Shown here: positions 13,064-41,085 of the stretch, piece by piece | Position numbering within the stretch: the stretch's first letter is position 1 | Layout of the letters: each line of letters starts with the position of its first letter | Source: a virus | Length of the DNA: 41,085 nucleotides | Direction: 5' to 3' (one strand) | IMG/VR virus record: IMGVR_UViG_3300034069_000436 | Location: 1-41,085 of that record | The notes under the pieces: generated by a model | The model's database searches: none | What the model saw: the letters and a program-made list of their open reading frames with translations, nothing else | Told to the model about the DNA's origin: nothing | Made by a program: the position numbers and the translations under genes

Positions 13064-13258
13064 CTATCGGTCCACCATCATTTCAGGCATCGGCTTACCT
13101 GCAACGGCGCCGAGCATTGCGATCGTATTACGATGCAGCTTCGGGACGCCGTTGTAGCGCCAATAGGAAAACGCCTGCCGGCTGATCCGCATGTGCGCCC
13201 TGATTGGAGCGAATCCCAGCCGATCAAGAGCCGCTGCGTCGGGATGATGCTGTTTCAT
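13064..13258 (-). CDS. Cro/YdaS-like HTH transcriptional regulator
   Basis: Only the last 64 aa of track ORF 13064..14086 look real: MKQHHPDAAALDRLGFAPIRAHMRISRQAFSYWRYNGVPKLHRNTIAMLGAVAGKPMPEMMVDR. It is the first gene of the leftward block and faces the divergent control region. Confidence 0.65.
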   Translation of the reverse strand: MKQHHPDAAALDRLGFAPIRAHMRISRQAFSYWRYNGVPKLHRNTIAMLGAVAGKPMPEMMVDR

Positions 13259-13363
13259 GAAACGCGATATGACACGCCAAAATAATTGACGCAAGAGGGT
13301 TGACGCGCAAAGCCTTTGACGGCAGATAGGGGCAGCAGGCCACCCCGGCTTTGGGAGAGCACC
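13259..13363. promoter_or_regulatory. Divergent early control region with three TTGACG direct repeats
   Basis: TTGACG occurs at 13286-13291, 13300-13305 and 13316-13321 (spacing 14 and 16 nt), in an AT-richer stretch (aaaataattgac). SD GGGAGAG lies before the GTG at 13364. The Cro-like ATG at 13258 has almost no leader. Confidence 0.45.
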
Positions 13364-14143
13364 GTGACGACAACCGCACCGACGATCGATCAAGACCGCT
13401 TGGCGGAGGTTGCAAAGCGCGGCCTCGATAGCGGCGCACATCATGGCTTCGAAGATGGCATGTGCGCGATGGAAGCTGCCAGCTACATCGCTGGTGAGCC
13501 CTGGAGCGACCATCCCAAGTGCGTCAGCCCGGTCATCGCAGCGTTCCTTCGTAGCTGGAATGACAGCCTGCCAACCGATGAGCGTAACGCGTTGATAACG
13601 CCGGACGTGATCGCTATAACGATCGGCACGCGCGGGTCTGCCAAGCTGGAAGAGCGCCGCTCGCTGATGGCAGCCGACTGGCTGGTCCGCACGCATACCG
13701 TGGCATGGCTCCGGCTCGCGAAGCTGGACAAGCAAGCCGACGCGTTGGAAGGTTTGCCCGAAATTACGGCAATGGCGCAGGTGCCGCCAATGCGGGCACC
13801 TATTGAGGGTGTGCGTGCTGACGCAAACGCTGCCTGGGACGCTGCCGGGGCCGCTGCCGGGGCCGCTGCCAGGGACGCTGCCAGGGCCGCTGCCAGGGAC
13901 GCTGCCAGGGCCGCTGCCAGGGACGCTGCCAGGGCCGCTGCCAGGGCCGCTGCCTGGGCCGCTGCCGGGGCCGCTGCCGGGGCCGCTGCCAGGGCCGCTG
14001 CCGGGGCCGCTGCCGGGGCCGCTGCCTGGGACGCTGCCGGGGACGCTGCCAGGGCCGCGCTCATGCCGACCCGTCTGACTCTGCAAGCATCTGCTGGCGA
14101 TCTGATCCGCCGCATGTGCGCACTGACCGAGGTGGCCTCGTAA
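13364..14143 (+). CDS. Early protein with a globular N-terminal domain and a (A-A-W/G/R-D/A)19 repeat C-terminal half
   Basis: Track ORF 13316..14143. Start preferred at the GTG at 13364 after GGGAGAGcacc. The N-domain motif is CAMEAASYIAGEPWSDHPKCVSPVIAAFLRSWNDSLPTDERNAL. The C-terminal half is encoded by the 12-bp array. Confidence 0.7.
   Translation: MTTTAPTIDQDRLAEVAKRGLDSGAHHGFEDGMCAMEAASYIAGEPWSDHPKCVSPVIAAFLRSWNDSLPTDERNALITPDVIAITIGTRGSAKLEERRSLMAADWLVRTHTVAWLRLAKLDKQADALEGLPEITAMAQVPPMRAPIEGVRADANAAWDAAGAAAGAAARDAARAAARDAARAAARDAARAAARAAAWAAAGAAAGAAARAAAGAAAGAAAWDAAGDAARAALMPTRLTLQASAGDLIRRMCALTEVAS
13829..14056 (+). repeat. In-frame 12-bp tandem array, 19 units
   Basis: The unit is GCTGCC[T/G/A]GGG[A/C]C. 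I counted the units one by one: 13829-13840 ... 14045-14056. Only 2 of the 12 positions vary. Confidence 0.95.
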
Positions 14144-14947: not shown

Positions 14948-15234
14948 GCGCTCCCAACATCGCATGCGTCCTTGCTGACGCGGTTGGTCCGCTTCTTGCC
15001 GGCCTAACCGACGCCATGGGCTGCAAAGCCGACGTGTCTTGGTTTTCCGCCTCCGATCGCTGTCATGCGTTCTGGAGCGTTAACCTGCACGATCATGATC
15101 GATGCTTTAGCGGCAACGACATTGACAGCCCGAGCCGCGCCTTGATGAAAGCTAATGCCCAGCGGCAGGAATGGGAGGAGCAGCAGACTCGTGGCCAGAA
15201 ATTGTTGGCCCAGGACGCACAGGTGTCGGCGTGA
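14944..15234 (+). CDS. Hypothetical protein
   Basis: 96 aa, with an ATGA overlap upstream. Confidence 0.55.
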   Translation: MSAPNIACVLADAVGPLLAGLTDAMGCKADVSWFSASDRCHAFWSVNLHDHDRCFSGNDIDSPSRALMKANAQRQEWEEQQTRGQKLLAQDAQVSA

Positions 15235-15920
15235 ATAAGCCTCACATTACCTACCACGCCGACTTTGACCAAGGTTCGGAGCAATGGCTGGCGGCGCGTT
15301 GCGGGCTGCTCACCGCGAGCGAGATGAAGCTGATCCTTACGCCGACGCTCAAGGTCTCCAACAACGATAAGACACGCCAGCACGTTTATGAGATCGCTGG
15401 CCAGCGTATCACCGGATATGTCGAACCGCACTACATTGGCGACGACATGCTGCGTGGTCACGAAGACGAGGTGCGCGCACGGCTTGCCTATGCCGAAAAG
15501 TTTGGCGAGGTCACGGAGTGCGGGCTGGTCACGAATGACAGTTTCGGCTTTACCATAGGCTATTCGCCCGACGCTCTTGTTGGCAATGGCGGCCTGATCG
15601 AGTGTAAGTCGCGTCGGCAAAAGTATCAGGTGCAAACGATTATTGCTGGCGTGCCGGACGAGCACGTTTTGCAGCTTCAGACCGGTTTGTTGGTCACCGA
15701 GCGAGCGTGGATTGACTACGTGTCATACTCGGGCGGAATGCCGATGGCGGTGATCCGCGTCGAATCTGACGCAGAAATGCAGACAGCTATTGTTGCGGCG
15801 GCGACTGACTTTGAGCAGCGCGTTACCGATGCGATCAGTGATTACCAATCCGCCCTTTCGTCTGGCCGCCTTCGCTGGTGCCCGACCGAGCGCGTTATCG
15901 AACAGGAAATGCATCTATGA
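15231..15920 (+). CDS. YqaJ-like (lambda Exo-type PD-(D/E)xK) recombination exonuclease
   Basis: Track ORF 15171..15920. Start at the GTG at 15231 (GTGA overlap). Motifs: FDQGSEQWLAARCGLLTASEM, GYSPDALV, LIECKS. Confidence 0.8.
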   Translation: MNKPHITYHADFDQGSEQWLAARCGLLTASEMKLILTPTLKVSNNDKTRQHVYEIAGQRITGYVEPHYIGDDMLRGHEDEVRARLAYAEKFGEVTECGLVTNDSFGFTIGYSPDALVGNGGLIECKSRRQKYQVQTIIAGVPDEHVLQLQTGLLVTERAWIDYVSYSGGMPMAVIRVESDAEMQTAIVAAATDFEQRVTDAISDYQSALSSGRLRWCPTERVIEQEMHL

Positions 15921-16561
15921 GTGACATGTCTGCCGTCATTGTCGCCAAGAGCGATCAGTGGAACGCTGACGATTTCGTCAACGGCGCCCGCACCTTCACC
16001 ATTGAGGACGTTTCGATCCGCCCCGGCACAGAACAGCCGGTGCAGATCAAGCTCGCCGGCAGCAACAAGTTCTTCCGTCCGTGCAAGACCGTCAGCCGTG
16101 TCTTGGTCGCGGCTTGGGGCGCGGATGCCAATGCATATCGTGGCCGATCGCTAACGCTCTACACCGACCCGGCGGTTCTCTGGGGTGGCATGAAGGTGGG
16201 TGGCATCCGGGTCAGCCACCTGTCAGACCTGACGCAGCCGCTTGTCATCGCCCTTCAGGAAAAGAAGGGTAGCCGCAAGATGACGACCGTGCAGCCGCTC
16301 AAGGTCGAGTCCGCGCAGTCTAACGGCAGCGACTTGCTCACGATCGACCAAGCGCGCGCGGATATCACCAACGCGGCAGACCTGGGCGATTTGCGCCGGT
16401 TGTGGTCGCGCCGGGCAATGGCGCCGTTCCGCGATGAACTTCAGGAAGCGCTCGACATTCGCAAGGAAGAACTGTCCAACATCGACGCTCGCGAAGGCCG
16501 TTCCGACGACCAACATGGCGACCAACACGACGGCGAGACCATTGAGGAAAACGGCCAATGA
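15917..16561 (+). CDS. Hypothetical protein. Its position suggests an ssDNA-binding or annealing partner of the exonuclease, but this is unproven.
   Basis: Track ORF 15878..16561 trimmed to MSDMSAVIVAKSDQWNADDF (ATGA overlap). Beta-rich N-terminal half and acidic tail. The functional suggestion rests on synteny only. Confidence 0.35.
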   Translation: MSDMSAVIVAKSDQWNADDFVNGARTFTIEDVSIRPGTEQPVQIKLAGSNKFFRPCKTVSRVLVAAWGADANAYRGRSLTLYTDPAVLWGGMKVGGIRVSHLSDLTQPLVIALQEKKGSRKMTTVQPLKVESAQSNGSDLLTIDQARADITNAADLGDLRRLWSRRAMAPFRDELQEALDIRKEELSNIDAREGRSDDQHGDQHDGETIEENGQ

Positions 16562-16707
16562 CCGGCAGCTACCGAGACATCCTCGCCCGCCGCGAGCGCA
16601 AACGCCCGGACGGGACGTCTGTCTGGCCGCTGCGCAACAGCGACAATCCCAGCCGGTTTCGGACCGATGCTGGGTCTCAGGTAAGCGGGGAGAGCGCACG
16701 TGGCTGA
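16558..16707 (+). CDS. Hypothetical 49-aa protein (below the track cutoff)
   Basis: My translation: MTGSYRDILARRERKRPDGTSVWPLRNSDNPSRFRTDAGSQVSGESARG. ATGA overlap upstream, and an 8-nt overlap with the next GTG start. Confidence 0.4.
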   Translation: MTGSYRDILARRERKRPDGTSVWPLRNSDNPSRFRTDAGSQVSGESARG

Positions 16708-17239
16708 CCTGCTGTCCGCACTTCGCGAGCCGCCCGTCGTGGGTCGGTTCTACATGGTCCCGGTCATCCGCGACTACCCGCTGGGTGGCAAGCTCGGCAC
16801 CTGGCCTGTGATCGGGCCGAAACATTCGGACATCGATTTCCTCAATTTCCGAGACGAGCATTATCATGTCGATGCGCGGTTCGTCACCGCTGCCCAAGAG
16901 CGGGCCATCACTGTTGGCGGACAACGTAGCTTAGAGGCGGTTGTCGGCAGTTGGCCGCTTGCATCTTACAGGCACGAGTTGCCGAAGGGCAGGCCCGCAC
17001 TGGCTCGGCTGAAGTGTCGCCGCAGCGCTTATGGCTATGCCTATGGTCATCAGCCGGCAATCAAGAAGCTGCGTGAGCATTACGGCGACCCGGCCGAGCC
17101 TATCCGCCTCGCCGATAGACGCCTGCTCTGCCCGCACCGCAAGGCCGATCTGTCCAGCTTTGCTCCGGGCGATGATGGCCTCGTGATTTGCCCGCTTCAC
17201 GGCCTGCGCGTGCGTTGTGCTCAAGGCCAGACCTCATGA
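16700..17239 (+). CDS. Protein with a C-terminal Rieske-type [2Fe-2S] ligand motif
   Basis: 179 aa. CPH-x17-CPLH (CPHRKADLSSFAPGDDGLVICPLH) fits the Rieske pattern CxH-x(15-17)-CxxH. Confidence 0.55.
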   Translation: MADLLSALREPPVVGRFYMVPVIRDYPLGGKLGTWPVIGPKHSDIDFLNFRDEHYHVDARFVTAAQERAITVGGQRSLEAVVGSWPLASYRHELPKGRPALARLKCRRSAYGYAYGHQPAIKKLREHYGDPAEPIRLADRRLLCPHRKADLSSFAPGDDGLVICPLHGLRVRCAQGQTS

Positions 17240-17268
17240 CCCGTCAACCACAACCAAGGGAGGGCGCG

Positions 17269-17955
17269 ATGCCCGTTGAGAAGTTCGAAGTCCGCAACCG
17301 CTGGTCCAGTCGCATCCAGTTCACTGCCGAGATCACCTGCGCGCCCGACGCCACGATCGGCGTGAAGTTGGGGCTGGCAGTAAGGTGGGCGAGAAAGAGC
17401 GGTGCCGTCCTGCGCGGTGCCGACCTGAGCGGTGCCGTCCTGCGCGACGCCGTCCTGCGCGACGCCGTCCTGCGCGACGCCGACCTGCGCGACGCCGTCC
17501 TGCGCGACGCCGACCTGAGCGGTGCCGTCCTGCGCGACGCCGTCCTGCGCGACGCCGACCTGAGCGGTGCCGTCCTGCGCGACGCCGACCTGAGCGGTGC
17601 CGTCCTGCGCGGTGCCGTCCTGCGCGGTGCCGACTGGCTCCCGCGTATCACCAACATTCACCAGTCGATCTACAATGCCGCTCGCCAGGAAGGCGCCCTC
17701 GACATGGCATCGTGGCACCGTAATGGCTACTGCGGCACGACGCATTGCCGGGCTGGATGGGCGGTGGTGCTGACCGGCGAGGGCGGCCGGGTGCTTGAGG
17801 GCATCTACGGCACCAACGCCGCTGCTGCGCTGATTTATCAGGCCAGCGACCCAAAGCTGGAGCGTATCCCTAACTGGATCGCGTCAAACCAAGACGCGCT
17901 GGACGACATGCGGATGAAGGCGGAAGCGGAAGCTGCCTCTGCGGTCTCCTCATGA
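17269..17955 (+). CDS. Pentapeptide-repeat protein with a Cys/His-containing C-terminal domain
   Basis: Track ORF 17188..17955. Start at MPVEKFEV, preceded by AGGGAGGgcgcg. It carries 16 consecutive [G/D]A[V/D]L[R/S] pentapeptides. The C-domain motif is WHRNGYCGTTHCRAGWAVVL. Confidence 0.8.
   Translation: MPVEKFEVRNRWSSRIQFTAEITCAPDATIGVKLGLAVRWARKSGAVLRGADLSGAVLRDAVLRDAVLRDADLRDAVLRDADLSGAVLRDAVLRDADLSGAVLRDADLSGAVLRGAVLRGADWLPRITNIHQSIYNAARQEGALDMASWHRNGYCGTTHCRAGWAVVLTGEGGRVLEGIYGTNAAAALIYQASDPKLERIPNWIASNQDALDDMRMKAEAEAASAVSS
17401..17637 (+). repeat. In-frame 15-bp tandem array, about 16 units
   Basis: Units are GGTGCCGTCCTGCGC, GACGCCGTCCTGCGC, GACGCCGACCTGCGC, GACGCCGACCTGAGC and GGTGCCGACCTGAGC, counted consecutively from 17401. 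Several adjacent units are 15/15 identical. Confidence 0.95.
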
Positions 17956-17987
17956 CCCCTCCCATGGATAGAGGCGAGGGGCGGGAG
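17952..17987 (+). repeat. Junction module copy J1
   Basis: atgacccctcccATGGATAGAGGCGAGGGGCGGGAG. The last 24 nt are identical to J2 18791-18814. Confidence 0.9.
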
Positions 17988-18758
17988 ACGCGCTCCGGCA
18001 TCATTCGTGACATTGATGGCGTGCTGCACGTCGTCGCGCTCTCCGGTGGTCACGACAGCACCATCCTGTCATTGCTGCTGAACGAGCGCGAGCCGCGTCC
18101 GTACCTTCATGTCTGTACGCCGACTGGCGATGAGTTGCCGGCAATGTTTGAGCATTGGAACCGGCTTAGCGGGATGCTCGGCAGCCGTATTATGCCGATC
18201 ATGGCGGGAAGCCTCAAAGGCGTCATCAGCCAAAAGGGGTGTTTGCCCAATTTCCGCCGGCGGTTCTGCACCCGCGTTTTGAAGATTGAGCCTTTCCGCG
18301 CTTTCATGGCTGCACAGGCCAAGGATGGGCCGGTCGTCTCCTATGTGGGTCTGCGCGCTGATGAGCCGGGACGGGCTGGCGGCGCTTACGACAACATTCC
18401 CGGCGTCACAATTCGTTACCCTTTACGCGAATGGGGCATGGGCGAGGACGAGGTTCAGGCCGGCTTGGCTGAGCGCGGCGTCAAGTGCCCCGATCGGACT
18501 GACTGCGGTCTGTGCTATCACCAGCGCATCGGCGAGTGGTGGGAATTGTGGAAATACCATCCCGACCGGTTTGATGATGGGGTAACGATTGAACAGCGCT
18601 ACGGGGAAACGTTTCGCACGCCGGGGCGCGATAGCTGGCCCACGTCGCTGAAGGAAATGGGCGAACGCTTTGAGGCCGGCGACAAGCCGAACACCAGCCT
18701 CAATCGCATGGCTCGGGAGCGTCAGCAAACGGGCTCTTGTCGCGTGTGTTCGCTATGA
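17952..18758 (+). CDS. PP-loop ATP pyrophosphatase, PAPS-reductase-like family
   Basis: 268 aa. VVALSGGHDSTILSLLL is the SGGxDS PP-loop. ATGA overlaps at both ends. Confidence 0.75.
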   Translation: MTPPMDRGEGRETRSGIIRDIDGVLHVVALSGGHDSTILSLLLNEREPRPYLHVCTPTGDELPAMFEHWNRLSGMLGSRIMPIMAGSLKGVISQKGCLPNFRRRFCTRVLKIEPFRAFMAAQAKDGPVVSYVGLRADEPGRAGGAYDNIPGVTIRYPLREWGMGEDEVQAGLAERGVKCPDRTDCGLCYHQRIGEWWELWKYHPDRFDDGVTIEQRYGETFRTPGRDSWPTSLKEMGERFEAGDKPNTSLNRMARERQQTGSCRVCSL

Positions 18759-18814
18759 CCATCCCCACCCATTCAGCAGGATCAGACACCATGGATAGAG
18801 GCGAGGGGCGGGAG
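18755..18814 (+). repeat. Junction module copy J2 (longest form)
   Basis: atgaccatccccacccattcagcaggatcagacaccatggatagaggcgaggggcgggag. It shares its 5' block with J3 and its 3' block with J1. Confidence 0.9.
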
Positions 18815-19606
18815 GGTGCGCAGCTTCGTGTGCTGTCGCTGTTTGCTGGCATCGGTGGCTTCGACTTGGGTCTTGAGCGGACCGGCGAATTTCGCACGGT
18901 TGCCTTTTGCGAGATCGATAAACGTTGCCGGCACGTGCTGGCGAAAAACTGGCCTGGAGTGCCGATCTATGAAGACGTGCTCGACCTTAGTGCCCAGCAT
19001 CTCGCCGCAGCAGGAATTGCCATTGATGTCATCTGCGGCGGGTTCCCATGCCAGAACATCAGTCTTGCCGGACGAATGGAGGGGATTGGTGGCGTCAAGT
19101 CTGGACTATGGCAGCACTACCTTCGTCTCGTCGAAGAAGTCCGTCCGCGCTGGGTCGTTGTCGAAAACAGTCCCGTCCTTCGCTCTCGCGGATTGGAAAT
19201 CATGCTCGGGCAGCTTGCTGCGATCGGGTATGATGCGGAGTGGCACTGTCTACCCGTTAATGCCTTTGGCGCGCCTCACCGGCGGGATCGCCTCTGGATT
19301 GTGGCCTACCCCGCTGGCGACCGAGACGGGCTTCCGCCGCTCCAGATTTCCACAGGGTGGGACCAGTCTAAGCACCGCGCTTGGTGGGATACCGAACCCG
19401 CTGTGGGTCGAGTGGTTGATGCGGTTTCCGCCGAACCACACCGCCTTGCCGAGCTCGGAAACGCCGTCTGTCCGGTAATTCCGGAGGAGATTGGCCGGGC
19501 AATTCTAGACGATGCGTTTGACCGCGCTGTCCGGCGTCCTTGCCCTGGTTGTGACCGACCGAACTACGACCATCATTGGAATTGCGCCGCGCAGGTCGCC
19601 GCATGA
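18755..19606 (+). CDS. DNA (cytosine-5)-methyltransferase, compact form
   Basis: Motif I LSLFAGIGGFDLG. Motif IV GGFPCQNIS. Motif VI VVENSP. Motif VIII HRRDRLWIV. Motif X GNAVCP. The variable region is very short. An alternative start is at 18791 (MDRGEGRE, AGGA 10 nt upstream). Confidence 0.85.
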   Translation: MTIPTHSAGSDTMDRGEGREGAQLRVLSLFAGIGGFDLGLERTGEFRTVAFCEIDKRCRHVLAKNWPGVPIYEDVLDLSAQHLAAAGIAIDVICGGFPCQNISLAGRMEGIGGVKSGLWQHYLRLVEEVRPRWVVVENSPVLRSRGLEIMLGQLAAIGYDAEWHCLPVNAFGAPHRRDRLWIVAYPAGDRDGLPPLQISTGWDQSKHRAWWDTEPAVGRVVDAVSAEPHRLAELGNAVCPVIPEEIGRAILDDAFDRAVRRPCPGCDRPNYDHHWNCAAQVAA

Positions 19607-19658
19607 CTCCCACCCATCTAGCAGGATCAGACAACATGGTAGAGCGAGAGGCGCGAGA
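19603..19658 (+). repeat. Junction module copy J3
   Basis: atgactcccacccatctagcaggatcagacaacatggtagagcgagaggcgcgagag. It aligns to J2 with a few substitutions and two small indels. Confidence 0.85.
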
Positions 19659-20166
19659 GATCTTGGCGCAAGCTTATGAGCGGGCGAACCTGACCTGCCC
19701 GGCCACCGACATTCGTGCTGGCAACAAGGTAGATTGGGTCAGGGAAGCGGTTGCCTTGGACGCTATCTCCGCCGCCCTCCACCCCACCCAGCCTGTAGGT
19801 GAGCCCGAAGGATGGCGGGAGGCCCACTCTGACGATCTGGCCGTTGATAGGTTCGCGGCAAAGATGAAAGCGAAGCTGGCGCAGGCTCGCGACAAAGGTC
19901 GCGGTGGCTGGGACGACCCGGAGCAGTGTGGCCCAACCATTCTGCTGCCAATGCTGCACGATCACCTCGCTAAGGGCGACCCGGTGGACGTGGCGAATTT
20001 TGCTATGATGCTGGATCACTACGGCGCGTCCACAGCCCCTTTCCCCACGTCGAACGTACAACGAGCCCGCGTCAAATGTGATCGGCTAGGTTGCGATTGG
20101 GCCAACGGTCGTGCCGCCCTTGCATCCCTGCCCACCAATGATGCCACGGAGACATTAAATGGATAG
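19603..20166 (+). CDS. Hypothetical protein. The middle region faintly resembles MazG-like all-alpha NTP-PPase helices but lacks the acidic metal motif.
   Basis: Track ORF 19576..20166 trimmed to MTPTHLAGSDNM (ATGA overlap). ...KLAQARDKGRGGWDD...HDHLAKGDPVDVANFAMMLDH. Confidence 0.5.
   Translation: MTPTHLAGSDNMVEREAREILAQAYERANLTCPATDIRAGNKVDWVREAVALDAISAALHPTQPVGEPEGWREAHSDDLAVDRFAAKMKAKLAQARDKGRGGWDDPEQCGPTILLPMLHDHLAKGDPVDVANFAMMLDHYGASTAPFPTSNVQRARVKCDRLGCDWANGRAALASLPTNDATETLNG
20128..20143 (+). repeat. DR1 left copy (ctgcccaccaatgatg)
   Basis: Perfect 16-nt match to 20417-20432. It encodes LPTND in the 3' end of gene 19603..20166. Confidence 0.9.
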
Positions 20167-20452
20167 CCAATGGTCGGAAATTGCCGCCAACGGTATCATT
20201 CACGCTGCTACAATGGCTTTTCAGGCTTGGGAGCAAAACTCATACGAGTTCACGCGTCCTTGCGTCCTGTTCAAGCCCGTATTGTCAAGAGACGGAAATC
20301 AGTGGTGCGCTTTGCTAGGCGACAATCTGCAAGAAGGTATCGCAGGTTTTGGAAACACGCCTTATCTTGCAATGTATGCTTTTGACAAAGCGTTCAATAC
20401 AGAAACCATCGTCCCTCTGCCCACCAATGATGAGGATCGCAGCCGTGGGTGA
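20159..20452 (+). CDS. Hypothetical protein in a low-GC cassette
   Basis: 97 aa. It looks visibly AT-richer than its neighbours (by eye near 50% GC). It is bracketed by the two DR1 copies. Confidence 0.6.
   Translation: MDSQWSEIAANGIIHAATMAFQAWEQNSYEFTRPCVLFKPVLSRDGNQWCALLGDNLQEGIAGFGNTPYLAMYAFDKAFNTETIVPLPTNDEDRSRG
20417..20432 (+). repeat. DR1 right copy
   Basis: Perfect 16-nt match to 20128-20143. It encodes LPTND in the 3' end of gene 20159..20452. Confidence 0.9.
20432..20452 (+). repeat. DR2 left copy (gaggatcgcagccgtgggtga)
   Basis: 18/21 match to 20688-20708. Contains the upstream stop and an embedded GTG start. Confidence 0.85.
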
Positions 20453-20708
20453 TTATCAGCTTTTTGTGTACCCGCCGTTTCGTGCTGCGCCGCGTGTGCT
20501 GATGCACGTCGATGATAGCGGAGAGCTTCCAGACGGCCGGAGGTGCGGCCATTTCGTCTGCCGCAAGTGCGGTTATGCCGAATGGCGAGCGGCGGGACTA
20601 ACCAACCAGCGACGCGGACTGCCTTGCCCCACTTGTAACGGCAAAGGCCAAAAAGTTCGCGCCCTCCACCCCAGCACCGCAGGACAGGAGGATCAGAGCC
20701 GTGGTTGA
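20445..20708 (+). CDS. Zinc-ribbon protein
   Basis: Track ORF 20349..20708. The GTG at 20445 is chosen by analogy with the paralogous DR2 junction at 20701. ATGs at 20427/20430 are alternatives. Motifs: CRKCGYAEW...CPTCNGKG. Confidence 0.55.
   Translation: MGDYQLFVYPPFRAAPRVLMHVDDSGELPDGRRCGHFVCRKCGYAEWRAAGLTNQRRGLPCPTCNGKGQKVRALHPSTAGQEDQSRG
20688..20708 (+). repeat. DR2 right copy (gaggatcagagccgtggttga)
   Basis: 18/21 match to 20432-20452. Contains the stop of the Zn-ribbon gene and the GTG start of gene 20701. Confidence 0.85.
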
Positions 20709-21174
20709 GAGCGAGTTCCAATCCATCGTGGGGCAAGAGGCGATCGACTTGCTTGTCGATCTGTGCGGGCCGGGCTCATCGCAATCCGGAACCAACTGTC
20801 GGGTGGTCGAGGATCACTTGAAGCAGTTTGCCCGCGCCATTGCCCCCAAGCCTCCCGCCGTCAGCAGCGAGAGCGCAGGGGTGGAGGATGATCGGTTGTT
20901 CATTGCCGCTGCGTTGGATTTTTCGAACGCCGGTCCTAACCACTTTAGCCCTGGCTTCCTTCAGTACCGCGATCTTGCACTTGCCGCCTCCCGCGTAAGT
21001 CTCGCCGCCCAGCCCACCACAGAGCAGCCGGGCGGGGTGACGCGGGAGCGCGAGCGCTGCGCCCGGATCGCGGAGAACTTCACCCGCGCCAGCCGGGATT
21101 GGGTGCCTGACAGCCTGTGGGACAACATCACCAAGGGCATTGCTGCGGCCATTCGAGGGGAGGGTGGCAAGTGA
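20701..21174 (+). CDS. Hypothetical protein
   Basis: 157 aa, with a GTG start inside DR2. Confidence 0.55.
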   Translation: MVESEFQSIVGQEAIDLLVDLCGPGSSQSGTNCRVVEDHLKQFARAIAPKPPAVSSESAGVEDDRLFIAAALDFSNAGPNHFSPGFLQYRDLALAASRVSLAAQPTTEQPGGVTRERERCARIAENFTRASRDWVPDSLWDNITKGIAAAIRGEGGK

Positions 21175-27359: not shown

Positions 27360-30356
27360 TTATTGTCCCGCGACCGGGAGCAGCCCGAGGCCGGCTCCGA
27401 ACATGCCACCGAGGCGGCGACCGGTCGAATTGTCGATATACGCCCGATACGCGTTCTGACGCGCGAGAAGCGCCGTTAGCGCGTTCGACGCTTCCGCCGG
27501 GTTAGTGTTGAATACATATGGCGCGATCTGGTCCGCCTTAGCCACGGCTTTGTTTCCCAGCCCGAGCGCGACACGGTCTTTTAGGCCCAAGCCCGCAATG
27601 CGTGCGGCGGTACCCGGCAACGTAGCCCCGCCAGTCGCCATTGCGGCAGCGCCATGCAAGCCCGCTTCGATCAGCGGATTCGCGGCGAAATCTGCGTCGG
27701 CAATTTGACGCGCCGCCGTCAATGAGTTGCCCAACACCGTGTTGTTCGTGCGGGCAAGCTGGCCCTCTAGATCGCGGGTGCGCAGCAGCGCCGCGTTTCC
27801 CGGATTGTTCGGATACAGGCTCGCAAGCCTCTGTTCAGCGGCCGGCGTTCCCAGAGTGGCGTCGAACGGGTTGCTAGCGTAGCGCGCGCTATTGGCCCGG
27901 TCCATTAACGCGCCGCGATAGCCAAGCTGCATCTGCGAAATGTTGCCCGGTGCCGTGTTCGCCAAGTCAACGCCAAGCTGGTTAGGATTGGCGGTGAACG
28001 CATCCTGCCCTGCCTGCAAGGCGTTGGTCGCCTCCATGGGACCAGCATAGGCGCGCCGCGCCTGCCCGTAGAGCGGATTCGCGTTGTCCAGCGTGGATAG
28101 AAAGCTTTTTCGGGTGTCGTTAATCGCGTTTCCGGCAGTGTTCAGGCGCTGCGTCAGCGGATCGCGGGCGGCGTCGACCGTATCGTCAAGACCCCGCTTT
28201 ACATAGTCGAGCGTCTGCCACGAAGGTACACGGGTCAATGTCGGGTTGCCTTGCGGATCAAGGTCAAAGCCGAGCGTCGTAGGATCACGTCCTTCTTCAG
28301 CCGCAATGTTACGGGCGCGGCCGAGCGCGTTTTGTACCGAAGGCTTGGCAAGGAATGGCTTAATCTGTGGGTATGCCGCGCCCGCCCCAGGTGCCGCGTA
28401 TGCCGCATCATACAGCGGCCTGGCCTGCGTGCGCGCCTGCTTGAGCAAGTCCTCACTCATCTGCGGCACGTTACCGACCGGCCCAAGATTGGTCGTGACA
28501 GACTGCCCTAGCCGATCAATTTGCCCGCGCGCCCGAGCGCCAAACGTATCCTGCGCGATTTGCGCCGCGTCGGGCGATCGGCGTACAACCTGACCGCCAA
28601 GAGTGGCCATCTGCGCGCCGGTATCGGCCAGCGACATAGGCACGCCGAGCCGCTGCGCTTCGGCGAGCTGATCCGTAATGCTGGCTGGGCCGATCTGCTT
28701 AGCGCGGGTGGCCAAGAGGTTTTCGCCAGCGTTAAGAGGTGAAGGGGCGCCGCGCTTGGCGAACATGCCGCCAACCTTGCGCCCGAACATCCCCCCGCCA
28801 ACGCCAGCACCAGCGCCAAGCAGCGCACCGCCCAAACGACTACTGTCGTCGGCCGCGCCAGCGCCAGACACACCGCCGAATAGAGCATCCGCACCCCGCG
28901 CGACCCAAGGCGACGCGGCAGAAATGCCGGCACGCCCTGCCGCTGCACCAACACCGAGTTCGGTCCCAGCCGCCGCCAGTCCCGCACCAGTGATATCACC
29001 GAGCAGTCCCGACGTAGGGTTGGCCGCGCTCGCACCCGCCAGTCCCGCGCGGGCCAACGCGGGGTCGGCTGTCATGTTGTCCAGCGTGTTGCCGGTCAGC
29101 GCGTTGGCGGCGCTCATGGCATAGGTGCCCAGCGGCGAGGTGCCGCCGTTGAGCGAAAACGCGGGCTGAAGCTGCGGCTTCATCGCTGGCGCGACGTTCG
29201 GCCCGAAGCTGCCGTACCCATGGTTGGCACGGCGGTACTTCAGATTGTCCAGCAAGCCCGAGGCGGCGGGGTCGATGCCGGCTCCCTTGGCAAACGCCGT
29301 CACCTCGTCGTCGGGCCGCCCCGATGCGAGCATGGACGAAAGTTGGTCCACGACTTTCTGACGATCGGGATCGGGAGCCATGCCGCCGGGGCCGGAACCG
29401 ATGCCCATACCGGCGGGACCGGGAGGTGGCGTGCCGCCCGGCCCGGAGCTGCCGCCTGCACCTGTATCACCGCCAGTATTCGGCAAACCGCCCTGATGGC
29501 CCTGCACGGCCTGTGCAACCAGCGCGGCGGTGCTTTCCGGCACTGAAAAGCCAGGTTGGTTGGTCAAGCCCTTGTAGGCGCCGTTAATGCCCGCATGGAT
29601 CGCCGCCATGCGGTTAGCCATGTCGGTCTTCATCTGGTCGAACGCCGATTGCTTCTGGTCGACACTGCCGCTGCCGTTGATTGTGCTCATCGCCTCATGG
29701 CGCGCACTATCCGACAGTGTACCGGCGCCGCTTGGGCTGCCGGCAACAACCTTGGCGTATTCGTTGACGAACGTGTTGTAGGCAGCGTCAGCGGCGGAAA
29801 TCGTTGTTCCCCCAAACCGACGCTGCACCCAATCGCTAATGGCGTTTAGCGGCGCAAAACGGGTCTGACCGGGCAATTCACGGCTGCGGTCGAGAAATTG
29901 CTGCCCATTGGTGAGCGCCGTCTGTTCGTTGACGCCGATCGTGCCCGCCATGTTTTCCAAGTTGGCGATTTGCTTCGACCCGGCTTTGTAGTGCGCCACC
30001 TGTGTCGCGAGGTCGGCGCCATTGAGCCCGCGCGCGCCTGCCTGCCGCGCGACTTCGGCCATGACTGCCTGTCGCGCGGCAGCGGCCTGCTTGCCCATGC
30101 CCAGCGCAGGCATCTGGCCTCCAGCAAGCACCTGCTGCGCCATGTAGCTGACCGTCGCGGGGTCAATTGCCGGCTCGTCCTGTTGCGCAGCTTCGCGCGC
30201 CAGCTTGGCGTTTTGCAGTCGCCGCGCCTCTAGTTCCGCTGCAGCTTGTGCGCCCTTGTACCGATACGCCGGGTCGGGGTCGCCAACCGCCACGTACCCC
30301 GCATATGGGTTGGCGCTCGGCACCGCGTATTTCGCGTAAGGATTGTCCTGCGCCAT
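27360..30356 (-). CDS. Large internal virion / DNA-ejection protein (putative)
   Basis: Track ORF 27360..30419 trimmed to MAQDNPYAKYAV at 30356 (TAATG overlap). 998 aa, A/G-rich, with a G/P low-complexity linker. It follows the SLT-domain protein, as in podovirus ejectosome gene sets. Confidence 0.55.
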   Translation of the reverse strand: MAQDNPYAKYAVPSANPYAGYVAVGDPDPAYRYKGAQAAAELEARRLQNAKLAREAAQQDEPAIDPATVSYMAQQVLAGGQMPALGMGKQAAAARQAVMAEVARQAGARGLNGADLATQVAHYKAGSKQIANLENMAGTIGVNEQTALTNGQQFLDRSRELPGQTRFAPLNAISDWVQRRFGGTTISAADAAYNTFVNEYAKVVAGSPSGAGTLSDSARHEAMSTINGSGSVDQKQSAFDQMKTDMANRMAAIHAGINGAYKGLTNQPGFSVPESTAALVAQAVQGHQGGLPNTGGDTGAGGSSGPGGTPPPGPAGMGIGSGPGGMAPDPDRQKVVDQLSSMLASGRPDDEVTAFAKGAGIDPAASGLLDNLKYRRANHGYGSFGPNVAPAMKPQLQPAFSLNGGTSPLGTYAMSAANALTGNTLDNMTADPALARAGLAGASAANPTSGLLGDITGAGLAAAGTELGVGAAAGRAGISAASPWVARGADALFGGVSGAGAADDSSRLGGALLGAGAGVGGGMFGRKVGGMFAKRGAPSPLNAGENLLATRAKQIGPASITDQLAEAQRLGVPMSLADTGAQMATLGGQVVRRSPDAAQIAQDTFGARARGQIDRLGQSVTTNLGPVGNVPQMSEDLLKQARTQARPLYDAAYAAPGAGAAYPQIKPFLAKPSVQNALGRARNIAAEEGRDPTTLGFDLDPQGNPTLTRVPSWQTLDYVKRGLDDTVDAARDPLTQRLNTAGNAINDTRKSFLSTLDNANPLYGQARRAYAGPMEATNALQAGQDAFTANPNQLGVDLANTAPGNISQMQLGYRGALMDRANSARYASNPFDATLGTPAAEQRLASLYPNNPGNAALLRTRDLEGQLARTNNTVLGNSLTAARQIADADFAANPLIEAGLHGAAAMATGGATLPGTAARIAGLGLKDRVALGLGNKAVAKADQIAPYVFNTNPAEASNALTALLARQNAYRAYIDNSTGRRLGGMFGAGLGLLPVAGQ

Positions 30357-31293: not shown

Positions 31294-33240
31294 TCAACCC
31301 CCACCCTGCGCTGCGGCGGCCGACTGCGCAGACTTGCCCAGCAATTCCATAATTGACGGAGAATTCTTTTGAGTTGTCGTTCCTGCGCTCACGTTCGTCC
31401 CGTACTTACCAGTCAACGCGCTAATTAGGTTGGCGTAGGCATCTGTTCCCACGTACGGCAGCGCAGCCGCAGCGTTCGCCAGCGCGATCGTCGGTGACAC
31501 ACCGTTGTAGGACGCCGCATCAAGACCGCTTGTCAGCCCCAGCGCAGAAAGAATCTGCTGCACCTGCGCCTGCTGTGCCGCGTCCGCCGAGGTCGCCGCA
31601 TTGAGGTTAAGCGTGCCGGTCTGATTGAACAGCGAACCGAGCGAAGATGCCGCTCCCTGCGCGTTGGACTGACCCTGGTTGTATAGCGACCCCGCCGCCT
31701 GCGCCGCGTTAGCCGCGTTCGACTGGCTCGCGTTGTACAGATTGCCCGCCCCAAGCGCTGCGCTCTGTGCGTTGGATTGCCCGGCATTGTAAAGGTTGCC
31801 CGCCGCCGATGCCGCACTGGCCGCGTTCGACTCGCCGGAATCGAATAGAGACCCGAGCGACTTCAACGTGTCCGCCTGCTGGCCGTAGCCGGTTGCGTAC
31901 TGGCTTCCCAGCGTGCCAGCCGCCGACAAGCGGTTCGCGGTGTCGTTGTTCAGCGTCGAGGACAGCCCCGATGCCGCTGCAAGCTGGTTGGCGGTGCGCG
32001 CCTGATCCGCCGACGAGAGCTGCCCGAGCGCGCCAAGGCGGGTCGCTGCATCGGCACGCGAGCCAGTGGACAGGCTGTTCGCCGCCGACAGCGATCGATC
32101 TTGCCCCGCGTTGTAGTTGGACGAGATTCGTCCCGACGCGCCCTCCATGTTGTTGCGCTCGGCGGCATAAGCGCTGTCCGCCTGTCCTGCTGCCGTGATT
32201 TGGCGGTTGGCTGCGTCATTGTAGGCGGTATAGCGCGTGGTGTTGTTGGCGTCGGCCACGGCAGAGCCCAACGCAGCATCATAGGCGGTCGATAGGCCAG
32301 CACCTAGGCCCGATGCCCCGAAACGCTGGTTCTGTGCCTTGCGAGCCGCCGCCGTCGCCTGATCCGTAATGGCGTCCACGAACGGGTTCACCGCCGGGTC
32401 GCCATTGATGAGCTTGCTGTAGAGCGCATAGCCCGGTTCGGCGTTAAGATACTTGCCGGCGATGACCGACTGATCGTAACCGTCCGCGCCGTTGGAAGTG
32501 CCGTTGTTGCCGGTGCCGGCGAACAATCCGAGCGTGCCGTCTCCCGCGCCCAACGTGCCGGTGCCGTACCCATAAGCCGCCAGCCCGCCCGTCGCGCTAT
32601 TGCGGCCCCCGTTCAACAACGAGGCATAGGCCAGCGATGCGGGGTTGGACGCATCGCCGTTCGCAATTGACGACAGCGTGCCCGTGGCTGGATTGCTGTA
32701 GGACGACCCCAGCGACGACAGGGCGGACAACGCAGGATTGTTCAGCGCCGACGACGACAGGCCATTTAGCGTACTGATGGACGGGTTAGCCGTTGCGGAT
32801 GTCGCCAGCCCGTTGAGCGTGCCGATCGACGAGTTGTTAAGCGCAGACGACGACAGGCCGCCCAGTGTACCAATCGACGGGTTGGCGGTGGCCGACGAGG
32901 TAAGCCCGCTCAACGTCGACAGCGCCGGGTTCTGCGCCGCCTGTAGCTGCTGATAGGTCTGCGCGCCGGGGTTTGCGCCGTACAGCGCGCCAGAACCGAT
33001 CGCCGAGGCGTTGGCCTGCGCCTGCTGCACGTAGGGTGACGCACTCAGCGACTGTGGCGCGATGTTGTTGAAGCCCGTCGTCAGCGCGCTCGACAGCCCT
33101 TGCAGGTTGCCTTGGTTCGCGTTGAACACCGACTGCCCGCTGGCGAGCGCTTGGTTTATGTACGGGGAGTACTGATCCAGCGGCGACGACGTGCTGGTGT
33201 TGTTGCTGGTCGTCTTATTGCTGGACGATGAAAGACCCAC
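31294..33240 (-). CDS. S/N/A/G/Q-rich repeat-containing internal virion / ejection protein (putative)
   Basis: 648 aa, GTG start preceded by ACGGAG. Seven ~16-aa NPxIxTLxGLxSSAxx repeats and GNLYNxGQSNAxxAA repeats. Confidence 0.5.
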   Translation of the reverse strand: MGLSSSSNKTTSNNTSTSSPLDQYSPYINQALASGQSVFNANQGNLQGLSSALTTGFNNIAPQSLSASPYVQQAQANASAIGSGALYGANPGAQTYQQLQAAQNPALSTLSGLTSSATANPSIGTLGGLSSSALNNSSIGTLNGLATSATANPSISTLNGLSSSALNNPALSALSSLGSSYSNPATGTLSSIANGDASNPASLAYASLLNGGRNSATGGLAAYGYGTGTLGAGDGTLGLFAGTGNNGTSNGADGYDQSVIAGKYLNAEPGYALYSKLINGDPAVNPFVDAITDQATAAARKAQNQRFGASGLGAGLSTAYDAALGSAVADANNTTRYTAYNDAANRQITAAGQADSAYAAERNNMEGASGRISSNYNAGQDRSLSAANSLSTGSRADAATRLGALGQLSSADQARTANQLAAASGLSSTLNNDTANRLSAAGTLGSQYATGYGQQADTLKSLGSLFDSGESNAASAASAAGNLYNAGQSNAQSAALGAGNLYNASQSNAANAAQAAGSLYNQGQSNAQGAASSLGSLFNQTGTLNLNAATSADAAQQAQVQQILSALGLTSGLDAASYNGVSPTIALANAAAALPYVGTDAYANLISALTGKYGTNVSAGTTTQKNSPSIMELLGKSAQSAAAAQGGG

Positions 33241-40830: not shown

Positions 40831-41085
40831 TTACGACGGGGTGATATCGGCGATCACACCGGATGCCGCGTCATTGCTGCACCGCAGAGTAACCTCCGTG
40901 TACATGGCATCACGGTCGGCAAGCCCGGTCGTCGCCAGCTTGCGACGCTGCATGGGGTCGAGTTCCATAATCTGCCACATGTCGGTATCCAGCACCAGCG
41001 CGTCGCGCGTAGTGCCGATGTTCCGATCCGGCACGAACGCCAACTCGCCGAAGTCCGACACGTACACGTCGGCGCCGCCGATGAT
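40831..41085 (-). CDS. Major capsid protein, C-terminal segment (same gene as 1..864; 40945-41085 duplicates 1-141)
   Basis: Track ORF 40831..41067 is in frame with my capsid reading across the overlap. Position 40945 corresponds to position 1 at a codon boundary. Confidence 0.85.
   Translation of the reverse strand: MIGGADVYVSDFGELAFVPDRNIGTTRDALVLDTDMWQIMELDPMQRRKLATTGLADRDAMYTEVTLRCSNDAASGVIADITPS
40945..41085. repeat. Right copy of the 141-bp terminal direct repeat
   Basis: Identical to 1-141. Confidence 0.97.

Follow-up and report, generated by a model that had tools for sequence, protein, structure and literature searches.

Short conserved sequences at gene boundaries, or linkers, were proposed for the lambdoid phages as part of the modular theory of phage evolution (PMC3029335). 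Such sequences are kept between phages whose neighboring genes differ, and general recombination enzymes are thought to cross over there. Convincing examples are few (PMC3029335). In mycobacteriophage Island3, the inserted gene 68 is flanked by a repeat of about 50 bp (PMC3029335). Here we describe a locus in a viral genome, IMG/VR record IMGVR_UViG_3300034069_000436, which we analyzed over its 41,085 nucleotides (nt) and call the window. Three consecutive gene starts in the window, the junctions J1, J2 and J3, carry related sequence modules around the genes for a PP-loop ATPase and a C5 cytosine DNA methyltransferase. The modules are probably short conserved boundary sequences for recombinational cassette exchange, which lie in translation-initiation regions and donate start codons to the genes joined to them.

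Other systems invite comparison. The PeSL (promoter-early stem-loop) cassettes of T4-type phages are small repeated regulatory cassettes, found between non-essential genes of a variable region, and recombination between them shuffles open reading frames (ORFs), which are inserted, deleted or replaced (PMC2839356, PMC4122927). The locus resembles them in these respects. However, a PeSL cassette is a unit of transcription, with its sigma-70 promoter and terminator hairpin. The window modules lack both, being translational signals inside one polycistronic operon that overlap coding sequence on both sides. The Start-Associated Sequences (SAS/ESAS) of Cluster K mycobacteriophages are described, in the passages devoted to them, as asymmetric sequences containing a Shine-Dalgarno (SD) element a few bases before the starts of some non-structural genes, with an unproven function, and those passages propose no role in cassette exchange (PMC3203893). 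SAS and the window modules are alike in being SD-containing repeats before starts, associated with genes of different families. Unlike SAS, the modules are present in far fewer copies, have no 17-bp inverted repeats, and are conserved both past the start codon, in the ORF, and before it, in the end of the upstream gene. The 13-bp SAS consensus GGGATAGGAGCCC, positioned 3-7 bp before starts, is absent from the window; one match with 2 mismatches, at 29118 (0.94 expected), is not at a junction.

All three starts overlap the TGA of the preceding ORF, through ATGACC at 17952 and at 18755 and ATGACT at 19603, as an initial annotation of the sequence had it. The junction layout consists, in order, of the ATGA overlap, a C-rich tract, an AGGA SD sequence, a second in-frame start, and the first 3 to 8 codons; the second ATG with its upstream AGGA had likewise been pointed out. 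The two starts of each junction (ATG1/ATG2) are at 17952/17964, 18755/18791, and 19603/19636. The 24-mer ATGGATAGAGGCGAGGGGCGGGAG occurs exactly twice in the genome, at 17964 (J1) and 18791 (J2), and was never matched in 100 shuffles, even at 3 mismatches. The 24 identical nt already reported for J1 and J2 extend to 26/26 when the preceding CC is included. J2 and J3 have in common the block CCCACCCAT..AGCAGGATCAGACA.CATGG, also noticed before, with about 35 of 40 bases identical; AGCAGGATCAGACANCATGG is found at 18775 (J2) and 19620 (J3), against 0.03 expected. Their gapped alignment scores 64, compared with a maximum of 22 for 3718 random 75-nt windows from the same genome. On its upstream side, the J3 module begins about 25 nt before the ATGA. 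The right halves of J1 and J3 score 28, which is equalled in 0.08% of background windows. This similarity appears modest, weaker yet still unusual, and since it requires two 1-nt gaps, the encoded peptides differ (MDRGEGRE and MVEREARE).

The arrangement does not depend on the Joint Genome Institute (JGI) assembly, since Logan contig L013 (1710 nt) is 100% identical over 17582-19291, which covers J1, the ATPase and J2; this is a separate assembly, and the sample may be the same. The exact J1/J2 24-mer had no match in viral contigs, in a collection without the window itself, and a 20-mer had none in metagenome contigs. A scan of metagenome contigs with an alignment of the C-domain of the pentapeptide-repeat protein, whose gene precedes J1, returned one distant 1.5-kb contig only (L021). 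The sole genome-contig match to the J2/J3 pattern, in a Spirochaetes metagenome-assembled genome (L014), was taken as chance, its context being unrelated and low in GC, and about 4 such matches being expected for 19 fixed bases in 596 Gb. A match in L001 was considered chance in the same way.

The leader encoded by the junctions was found in none of 119 ATPase homologues and none of 59 methyltransferase homologues, and so belongs to the locus and not to the cargo. The ATPase homologues all start M(x1-5)RDxxGVLHVVALSGGHDS, without the 14-18 extra residues of the window protein; P0361, which is in the same 90% cluster as the window ATPase, starts MTRDENG. The methyltransferase homologues all start a few residues before LRVLSLFAGIGG (M..LRVLSLFAGIGG). 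The Pfam domains of both enzymes begin at residues 25-27, and the leader, missing from every homologue examined of the two, is no part of a conserved domain. In the ATPase, there is no in-frame ATG, GTG or TTG from 17964 to the conserved core, and the first alternative, GTG 18021, is already inside the core. The ATPase is thus left without a plausible start codon of its own and the leader must supply one. The leader is in frame in 3/3 fusions, to the ATPase, to the window methyltransferase (methyltransferase A) and to a different methyltransferase of a relative (methyltransferase B), an outcome of probability about 0.04-0.11 by chance, which fits its being translated. The 41-kb genome has it nowhere else. 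Among the closest cargo homologues (L015-L020, L026, L027), all in other phage backbones, the ATGA/GTGA overlaps are of the ordinary kind and the leader is missing, except that L019/L020 have a 40-nt junction duplication of their own. At its other end, the window methyltransferase has a Cys/His-rich extension, RRPCPGCDRPNYDHHWNC, within 19530-19606, that is not in the 59 homologues inspected. Many of these homologues end ..AA*, matching GCCGCATGA of the window, L002, and L026. The conserved junction may thus include the 3' end of the methyltransferase gene.

The modules are also present, with other cargo, in three relatives, L002, L022 and L025, all IMG/VR contigs from metagenome 3300034069. 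This is the cargo variation expected of recombination linkers, one of the roles initially suggested, and it lends that suggestion comparative support. In L002, the closest relative, the ATPase is absent and J1 is fused to methyltransferase B, a different C5 methyltransferase; the pentapeptide gene is conserved, and J3 (61/65 aligned columns identical) is followed by a variant of geneY, the gene that starts at J3 in the window. In L022, J3 is intergenic, after a ProQ-C-like gene, with about 25 nt resembling the methyltransferase 3' end (GCCGCCCAATGA) still attached, and the leader MVEREA is joined directly to an HSDD domain, which corresponds to the C-terminal half of the window geneY. In L025, a DUF5131 gene is followed by ATGA-CCCCACCCATCCAGCAGGATCAGACAACATG joined directly to an unrelated 87-aa ORF, and a second CAGGATCAGACAACATG-GTAGAGCGAGAGGCG leads another geneY variant, making two J3 copies in this genome. 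J3 is thus found in five upstream contexts (methyltransferase A, methyltransferase B, the spacer after the ProQ-C-like gene in L022, and the DUF5131 gene and the 87-aa ORF in L025) and with four different coding continuations downstream. J1 precedes the ATPase or methyltransferase B, and a J1-type leader also precedes methyltransferase A. J5 (CCCACCAATGATGAGGATCGCAGCCGTGGGTGA), a junction further downstream, is 97-100% identical in all four genomes and is followed by four different genes. In every case, homology ends 8-22 nt past the start codon.

The junctions are better conserved than the genes around them. Between the window and L002, 136/142 aligned columns are identical in junctions (96%) against 368/421 in the flanking orthologous coding sequence (87%; P = 6e-4). 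L025 has islands of 32-34 nt that are 100% identical amid otherwise unrelated sequence. Overall, the islands at J3, J5 and J0, a junction upstream of the pentapeptide gene, are 30-105 nt long with unrelated flanks and 75-100% identity (92-100% save for the diverged J3 of L022). J0 is 92% identical to L002 3782-3887, where the flanks are without homology and the genes differ on both sides. Another island of 33 nt, GCCCACCACAGAGGGGCGGGACGTAGCCGCC (94% identical), is at two different positions, 6546-6578 of L025, in an ATGA junction after a DUF1643 gene, and 6095-6127 of L002, within codons 4-14 of the gene that follows J5. Its layout is similar to the C-rich / GAGGGGCGGGA arrangement of J1.

The slot of the window between the pentapeptide gene and the gene that starts at 19603 holds two DNA-modification cassettes in tandem, and in L002 it holds one different methyltransferase. 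The ATPase segment is flanked by the 26-nt J1/J2 repeat. The left 40 nt of J2 belong to the J3 family (35/37 identical to J3 of L002, z = 14) and are of the same length variant as L022; the right 26 nt are those of J1 (26/26). Judged from these alignments, J2 is to be read as a chimera, J3-type in its left half and J1-type in its right. Such chimerism is expected of a crossover between a J3-type junction downstream of one cargo and a J1-type junction upstream of another. The perfect identity of J1 and J2, against about 90% for J2 and J3, suggests that the J1/J2 duplication is the more recent, or that the two copies have been homogenized. In the L015 homologue, the SD region before the native start (GGCGGGAGG) is matched by the last part of the leader (GGCGGGAG), and GGCGGGAG/GGCGGGAGG could possibly have served as microhomology for the left joint.

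Similar configurations are found elsewhere. In the window itself, gene 20159-20452, which the relatives lack at this position, lies between copies of a 16-nt repeat. In L025, the 87-aa ORF lies between 17-nt SD-spacer-ATG repeats, CAGGATCAGACAACATG. In L019/L020, Logan contigs of an unrelated phage, an ATPase homologue of 82% identity lies between 40-nt repeats, CCCTCCCCCACA(C/T)TCCCTAGAGGAGACGAGACATGGCGAC; those of L019 (5969-6008 and 6778-6817, 98% identity) are direct and comprise a C-rich tract, an SD, an ATG and 2 codons. The ATPase family would therefore have been inserted with junction duplication at least twice, independently. By this comparison of sequences, the stacking of cassettes with duplicated junctions is a recurrent feature (window, L025, L019/L020). 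The chimeric J2 and the repeat-bracketed cassettes would be indirect footprints of recombination.

The family of junctions is larger than the three copies first described, and what also goes beyond that description is the apparent chimerism of J2 and the presence of conserved islands inside geneY (19603-20166). The motif AGGATC-N5-8-RTGG is present in four copies in 41 kb, against 0.4 expected, and 0/100 shuffles had four or more. The copies (18778, 19623, 20433, 20689) are all at gene starts (18791, 19636, 20445, 20701). At J4 and J5, the AGGATC core is in another frame than at J2 and J3, and there it specifies ..ED(R/Q)SRG, the C-terminus of the protein upstream. The junctions thus have a DNA or RNA sequence in common, and not a peptide. 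J4 aligns to J2 and J3 with a score of 25, equalled in 0-0.08% of background windows (z = 4.0), and J4 and J5 are both at z of about 4 against J2. Upstream, J(-1) and J1 have CCTCATGACCC-TC in common (repeat D19). The coordinates of the junctions and genes are given in Table 1.

Table 1. Junctions, cargo genes and neighboring genes of the locus (window coordinates)
Feature	Coordinates	Strand	Description	Supporting matches and comparisons
YqaJ exonuclease gene	15171..15920	+	YqaJ / lambda-exonuclease-family recombination exonuclease	Pfam YqaJ 2e-11; PHROG exonuclease 9e-28; TIGR03033 2e-8, under cut-off
J0	16607..16711	+	3' end of upstream ORF (..QVSGESARG*), GTG start at 16700, 3 codons (VAD)	
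Pentapeptide-repeat protein gene	17236..17955	+	Conserved backbone gene left of the variable slot	Pfam Pentapeptide 1e-24; 87% nt identity to L002, full length
J(-1)	17236..17271	+	Start of the pentapeptide gene: ATGA overlap, C-rich tract, AAGGGAGGG, second in-frame ATG 33 nt downstream	
J1	17948..17987	+	ATGA overlap, CCCCTCCC, ATG at 17964, leader GATAGAGGCGAGGGGCGGGAG (MDRGEGRE)	37/38 identical in L002
Cargo 1	17952..18758	+	PAPS-reductase-like PP-loop ATPase (SGGHDS motif), in-frame fusion to J1 leader	PHROG 424 3e-29; Pfam PAPS_reduct 6e-4, under cut-off
J2	18755..18814	+	Apparent chimera: left J3-type (ATGA, CCATCCCCACCCATTC, AGCAGGATCAGACACC); right identical to J1 (CCATGGATAGAGGCGAGGGGCGGGAG)	
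Cargo 2	18755..19606	+	C5 cytosine DNA methyltransferase (methyltransferase A), in-frame fusion to leader	Pfam DNA_methylase 9e-40, from residue 25
J3	19578..19659	+	About 25 nt of upstream 3' end, ATGA, CTCCCACCCATCT, AGCAGGATCAGACAAC, ATG at 19636, GTAGAGCGAGAGGCGCGAGAG (MVEREARE)	
geneY	19603..20166	+	Mosaic protein of unknown function, segments joined by short conserved linkers	
geneY intragenic linker	19770..19823	+	AALHPTQPVGEPEGWREA; kept while flanks vary, permuted	52/54 identical in L002
Jx	20128..20166	+	Copy 1 of 16-nt repeat CTGCCCACCAATGATG, GGAG, ATG at 20159	Repeat D10
Extra small gene	20159..20452	+	Between 16-nt direct repeats at 20128 and 20417	No counterpart at this position in L002, L022, L025
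J5	20417..20452	+	CTGCCCACCAATGATG, GAGGATCGCAGCC, GTG start at 20445, overlapping TGA	Conserved in L002, L022, L025
Small Cys-rich gene	20445..20708	+	Zinc-ribbon-like, J5-started; start predicted from SD and J5 conservation	Weak RING-type matches only
J4	20662..20715	+	C-rich tract, AGGAGGATCAGAGCC, GTG start at 20701, GTTGAGAGCGAG; diverged paralogue of J2/J3	

The geneY islands are of the same kind. The leader of geneY is fused to three different continuations in the relatives (window 19603-20166 compared with L022 10001-10558, L025 5690-6061, and L002 5706-6092). The pieces that are conserved (88-100% identity) are the leader MVEREA, the linker AALHPTQPVGEPEGWREA, and AALASxPTNDEDRSRG, and the segments between them are unrelated or, in L022, permuted: there, the HSDD domain precedes the HPTQPVGEP linker (the AALHPTQPVGEPEGWREA island). 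The linker is 93% identical in L022 and 98% in L025. The mosaic resembles the conserved demarcation motifs of polymorphic toxin systems. Owing to the exact CTGCCCACCAATGATG repeat (20128-20143 and 20417-20432), geneY and the extra small gene that follows it both end ..LPTND...

The genome is about 40.9 kb, a complete, circularly closed assembly in which bases 1-141 are the same as 40945-41085 (an exact 141-nt terminal repeat), and it encodes an SU10-type portal and a primase-helicase. No close relative was found among GenBank phages by distant blastn, which matched pentapeptide repeats and methyltransferase segments only; Caulobacter phage RapA has the pentapeptide gene and not the architecture of the window. 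The closest methyltransferase homologues with a named source point to a sphingomonad as the probable host. The locus is inside a long plus-strand early operon that begins near 13316, with a promoter-like site at 13257 and none further inside; no promoter-like or terminator-like site was found at any junction. The gene order is YqaJ-type exonuclease, pentapeptide-repeat protein, PP-loop ATPase, C5 methyltransferase, geneY, and several small ORFs. The exonuclease is a candidate phage-encoded recombination function in the same operon, and may have had a role in the cassette events. Exonucleases of this type are normally paired with an annealase. The ORF at 15917-16561 overlaps and directly follows the exonuclease gene, and its position makes it a candidate annealase; its sole match is phrog_11517, a PHROG of unknown function, and AlphaFold prediction from the single sequence gave no usable model, the predicted local distance difference test (pLDDT) score being 47. 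Outside the locus, the first plus-strand early ORF (13316-14143) has at 13780-14106 a 12-nt tandem array of about 19 copies, encoding an Ala-rich AARDAARAAA repeat, and the corresponding ORF of L002 differs. A repeat with a 54-nt period (31649-31835, three copies, 65-72% identity) is in a minus-strand ORF of the structural region.

The junctions of the window behave as boundary sequences do, being conserved between non-homologous flanks, adjoining different genes, and being more conserved than neighboring homologous sequence; as in the boundary-sequence precedent, direct repeats of the boundary lie on both sides of an inserted gene. They differ in that the boundary is the translation-initiation region itself, running 3-8 codons into the downstream gene. 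Unrelated enzymes therefore gain a common N-terminal leader, and at least one of them needs it for its start. The window differs also in having several junctions in a row, plus similar islands within a gene. Cassette swapping at boundary sequences is an already known mechanism. What is new is that the boundaries coincide with initiation regions, and donate starts and leaders.

The mechanism we propose is as follows. The junctions would be paralogous translation-initiation regions of one long, translationally coupled early operon. Being 20-80 nt long and kept nearly identical while the adjoining genes differ, they could act as boundary sequences at which entire ORF cassettes are replaced, deleted or stacked when co-infecting phages undergo homologous or short-homology recombination. 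Exchange at the junctions would preserve the coupling, the SD, the start codon and the reading frame. Host RecA is one candidate for the enzyme, and the exonuclease/annealase system of the phage itself is another. According to two reports, phage recombinases (Rad52-like, Sak/Sak4 annealases) recombine diverged sequences and drive mosaicism (PMC3945230, PMC5499656), and such an activity would be plausible for crossovers at short, imperfect homologies in a phage that encodes a YqaJ-type exonuclease. J2 would be the footprint of a crossover between non-allelic junctions that left two DNA-modification cassettes stacked. The cargo ORFs would have been joined in frame to the resident leader, on which the ATPase would rely for its start codon. 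We infer this recombination pathway, the order of the events, and that cassette exchange rather than translation alone is the reason for the retention of the modules.

Several points weigh against this account. Recombination itself was not observed, and the account infers a history from its end states. The single-cargo parents that it predicts (pentapeptide-J1-ATPase-J3 and pentapeptide-J1-methyltransferase A-J3) were not found. The sampling is thin, with three relatives from one IMG metagenome, and the events may not be independent. The similarity of the J1/J3 right halves, and that of J4/J5 to J2/J3, appears modest. The partner annealase was not identified, the ORF at 15917-16561 being without a Pfam, NCBIfam or PDB match. 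The methyltransferases may not need the leader for their start: in the window, GTG 18828 is 12 nt after GGGAGGG, and homologue P0173 starts there. Internal starts about 10-12 nt past the G-rich leader (GTG 18828 in the window, a TTG in L002) are possible, and the leader might then be partly an SD for the methyltransferase rather than translated. Lastly, the excess conservation of the modules is equally expected under translational selection, with recombination as a by-product.

The last point leads to the strongest alternative, that the modules owe their retention mainly to a common role in translational control, as a standard initiation region that co-regulates a set of early genes and is possibly bound by a phage or host factor, with cassette exchange as a side effect. 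Comparisons here are the SAS of Cluster K mycobacteriophages, which are a precedent for start-linked repeats with genes of different families (PMC3203893), and the RegA target sites of T4. We consider this unlikely as the main reason for the modules, while giving it real weight. The conserved core is indeed SD, spacer and start codon, with AGGATC-N5-8-RTGG at four starts as described above, and the junctions are better conserved than neighboring genes, down to islands of 100% identity in unrelated contexts. The distances between ATG1 and ATG2 are all multiples of three (12, 33, 33 and 36 in the window, 33 and 33 in L002, 36 in L022, 33 in L025), which suggests that both starts matter, and fits the use of a coupled ATGA start together with an SD-driven ATG. 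Gene callers differ in their choice: JGI calls ATG2 for the ATPase, ATG1 for the methyltransferase and ATG2 for geneY, and Logan calls ATG1 for the ATPase and ATG2 for the methyltransferase. The calls disagree at every module, and protein clusters therefore carry inconsistent N-termini; the starts assigned here are predictions. The initial annotation had suggested that C-rich and G-rich halves pair around the second ATG of each module. The RNA fold of J1, a hairpin, is somewhat better than shuffles (-29.2 kcal/mol, z = -2.0), but those of J2 (z = +1.4) and J3 (z = +0.7) are no better, and the DNA folds of both strands of J2 and J3 are at z = +1.0 to +1.7. Pairing was thus not borne out as a common feature, and there is no shared RNA fold and no Rfam match for the modules. 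Moreover, there are just 4-7 copies, clustered in 3.5 kb and not spread over the early genes, and a translational element alone leaves the chimeric J2, the conserved codons after the start and the geneY islands unexplained. The initially suggested role in translational control accordingly keeps its core of SD, spacer and start, and loses the pairing at J2 and J3. Such an element is compatible with recombination linkers and may be the reason that the modules are conserved.

A further, rather speculative proposal can be made. A standardized, nearly invariant initiation adaptor could constitute a cassette system independent of any particular recombinase, in which ORFs that join, even without a ribosome-binding site or start, are expressed at once, and in which selection for exchangeability, perhaps together with a bound factor, keeps the adaptors the same in phages that are otherwise unrelated. 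If true, this would be a homologous-recombination analogue of the integron, with cargo expressed in a translationally coupled anti-defense operon. Candidates for such cargo are the pentapeptide protein, a possible DNA mimic, the methyltransferases, and the PP-loop enzyme.

The leader peptides (MDRGEGRE, MVEREARE, MT.PTH.AGSD.) might instead be functional N-terminal tags for targeting, virion packaging or regulated degradation. The internal-protein locus of T4, where variable genes have a common N-terminal capsid-targeting sequence, is a precedent, and the in-frame fusions to the ATPase and both methyltransferases, like the indels between ATG1 and ATG2 in multiples of 3, are as a tag would have it. 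This role, also raised in the initial annotation, nevertheless appears improbable. Capsid-targeting tags of the T4 type, which have a protease site and are shared by proteins packaged in the virion, are conserved as amino acid sequences. Here, the similarity is at the DNA level, with changes of frame: the right halves of J1 and J3 are alike as DNA and encode different peptides, and the AGGATC core at J4/J5 encodes the C-terminus of the upstream protein. All 119 + 59 homologues examined have start codons of their own and no tag, the leader occurs nowhere else in the 41-kb genome, and gene callers are split on whether the first 4-12 residues are translated.

Integron cassettes move through attI and attC by means of IntI, a tyrosine recombinase encoded next to the array, and attC is an imperfect inverted repeat that folds into a hairpin in single-stranded DNA. 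Some of the cassettes are translated from initiation signals in attI. The window is similar in having promoter-less ORFs stacked in one orientation, some of which use resident translation signals, and in having repeats that mark the borders. A dedicated site-specific system of the attC/attI manner, or small mobile repeats of the miniature inverted-repeat transposable element type, would account for the direct repeats that bracket cassettes and for cargo ORFs without promoters and, for some in the window and L025, without start codons. However, such a system is very improbable. There is no attC hairpin or fixed crossover point; J2 and J3 have no inverted repeats or hairpins on either strand, bar one overlapping 11-nt palindrome just downstream of J2; and the lengths (16, 17, 26, 40 nt) and end points of the repeats vary, as expected of homology-driven joints. 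The modules always have the orientation of the genes, and translation signals lie within them. A scan of about 25 window ORFs, with some of the small ones included, revealed no integrase or recombinase family. Chance similarity in a GC-rich genome or a chimeric assembly is the least credible explanation: the window was assembled from a metagenome, and its leader has a purine-rich sequence of low complexity, but shuffle and background tests exclude chance, L013 was assembled separately and is identical across J1-ATPase-J2, the repeats are at most 26 nt, far below the 141-nt terminal overlap of the assembly, and the modules are seen again in three other contigs.

Phage genomes are mosaics, and in this locus and its relatives natural linkers are densely represented and can be resolved to the single codon: junctions of 20-80 nt recur with many genes, cassettes are stacked, and one junction appears to be a recombinant of two others. 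As a consequence, unrelated enzymes gain a common leader and can lose their own start codon. Gene calling and protein family boundaries are affected, as three pipelines picked different starts. The design could be copied by engineers as a portable in-frame expression adaptor. The slot holds DNA-modification genes, and fast turnover of its cassettes would let phages change their anti-restriction repertoire.

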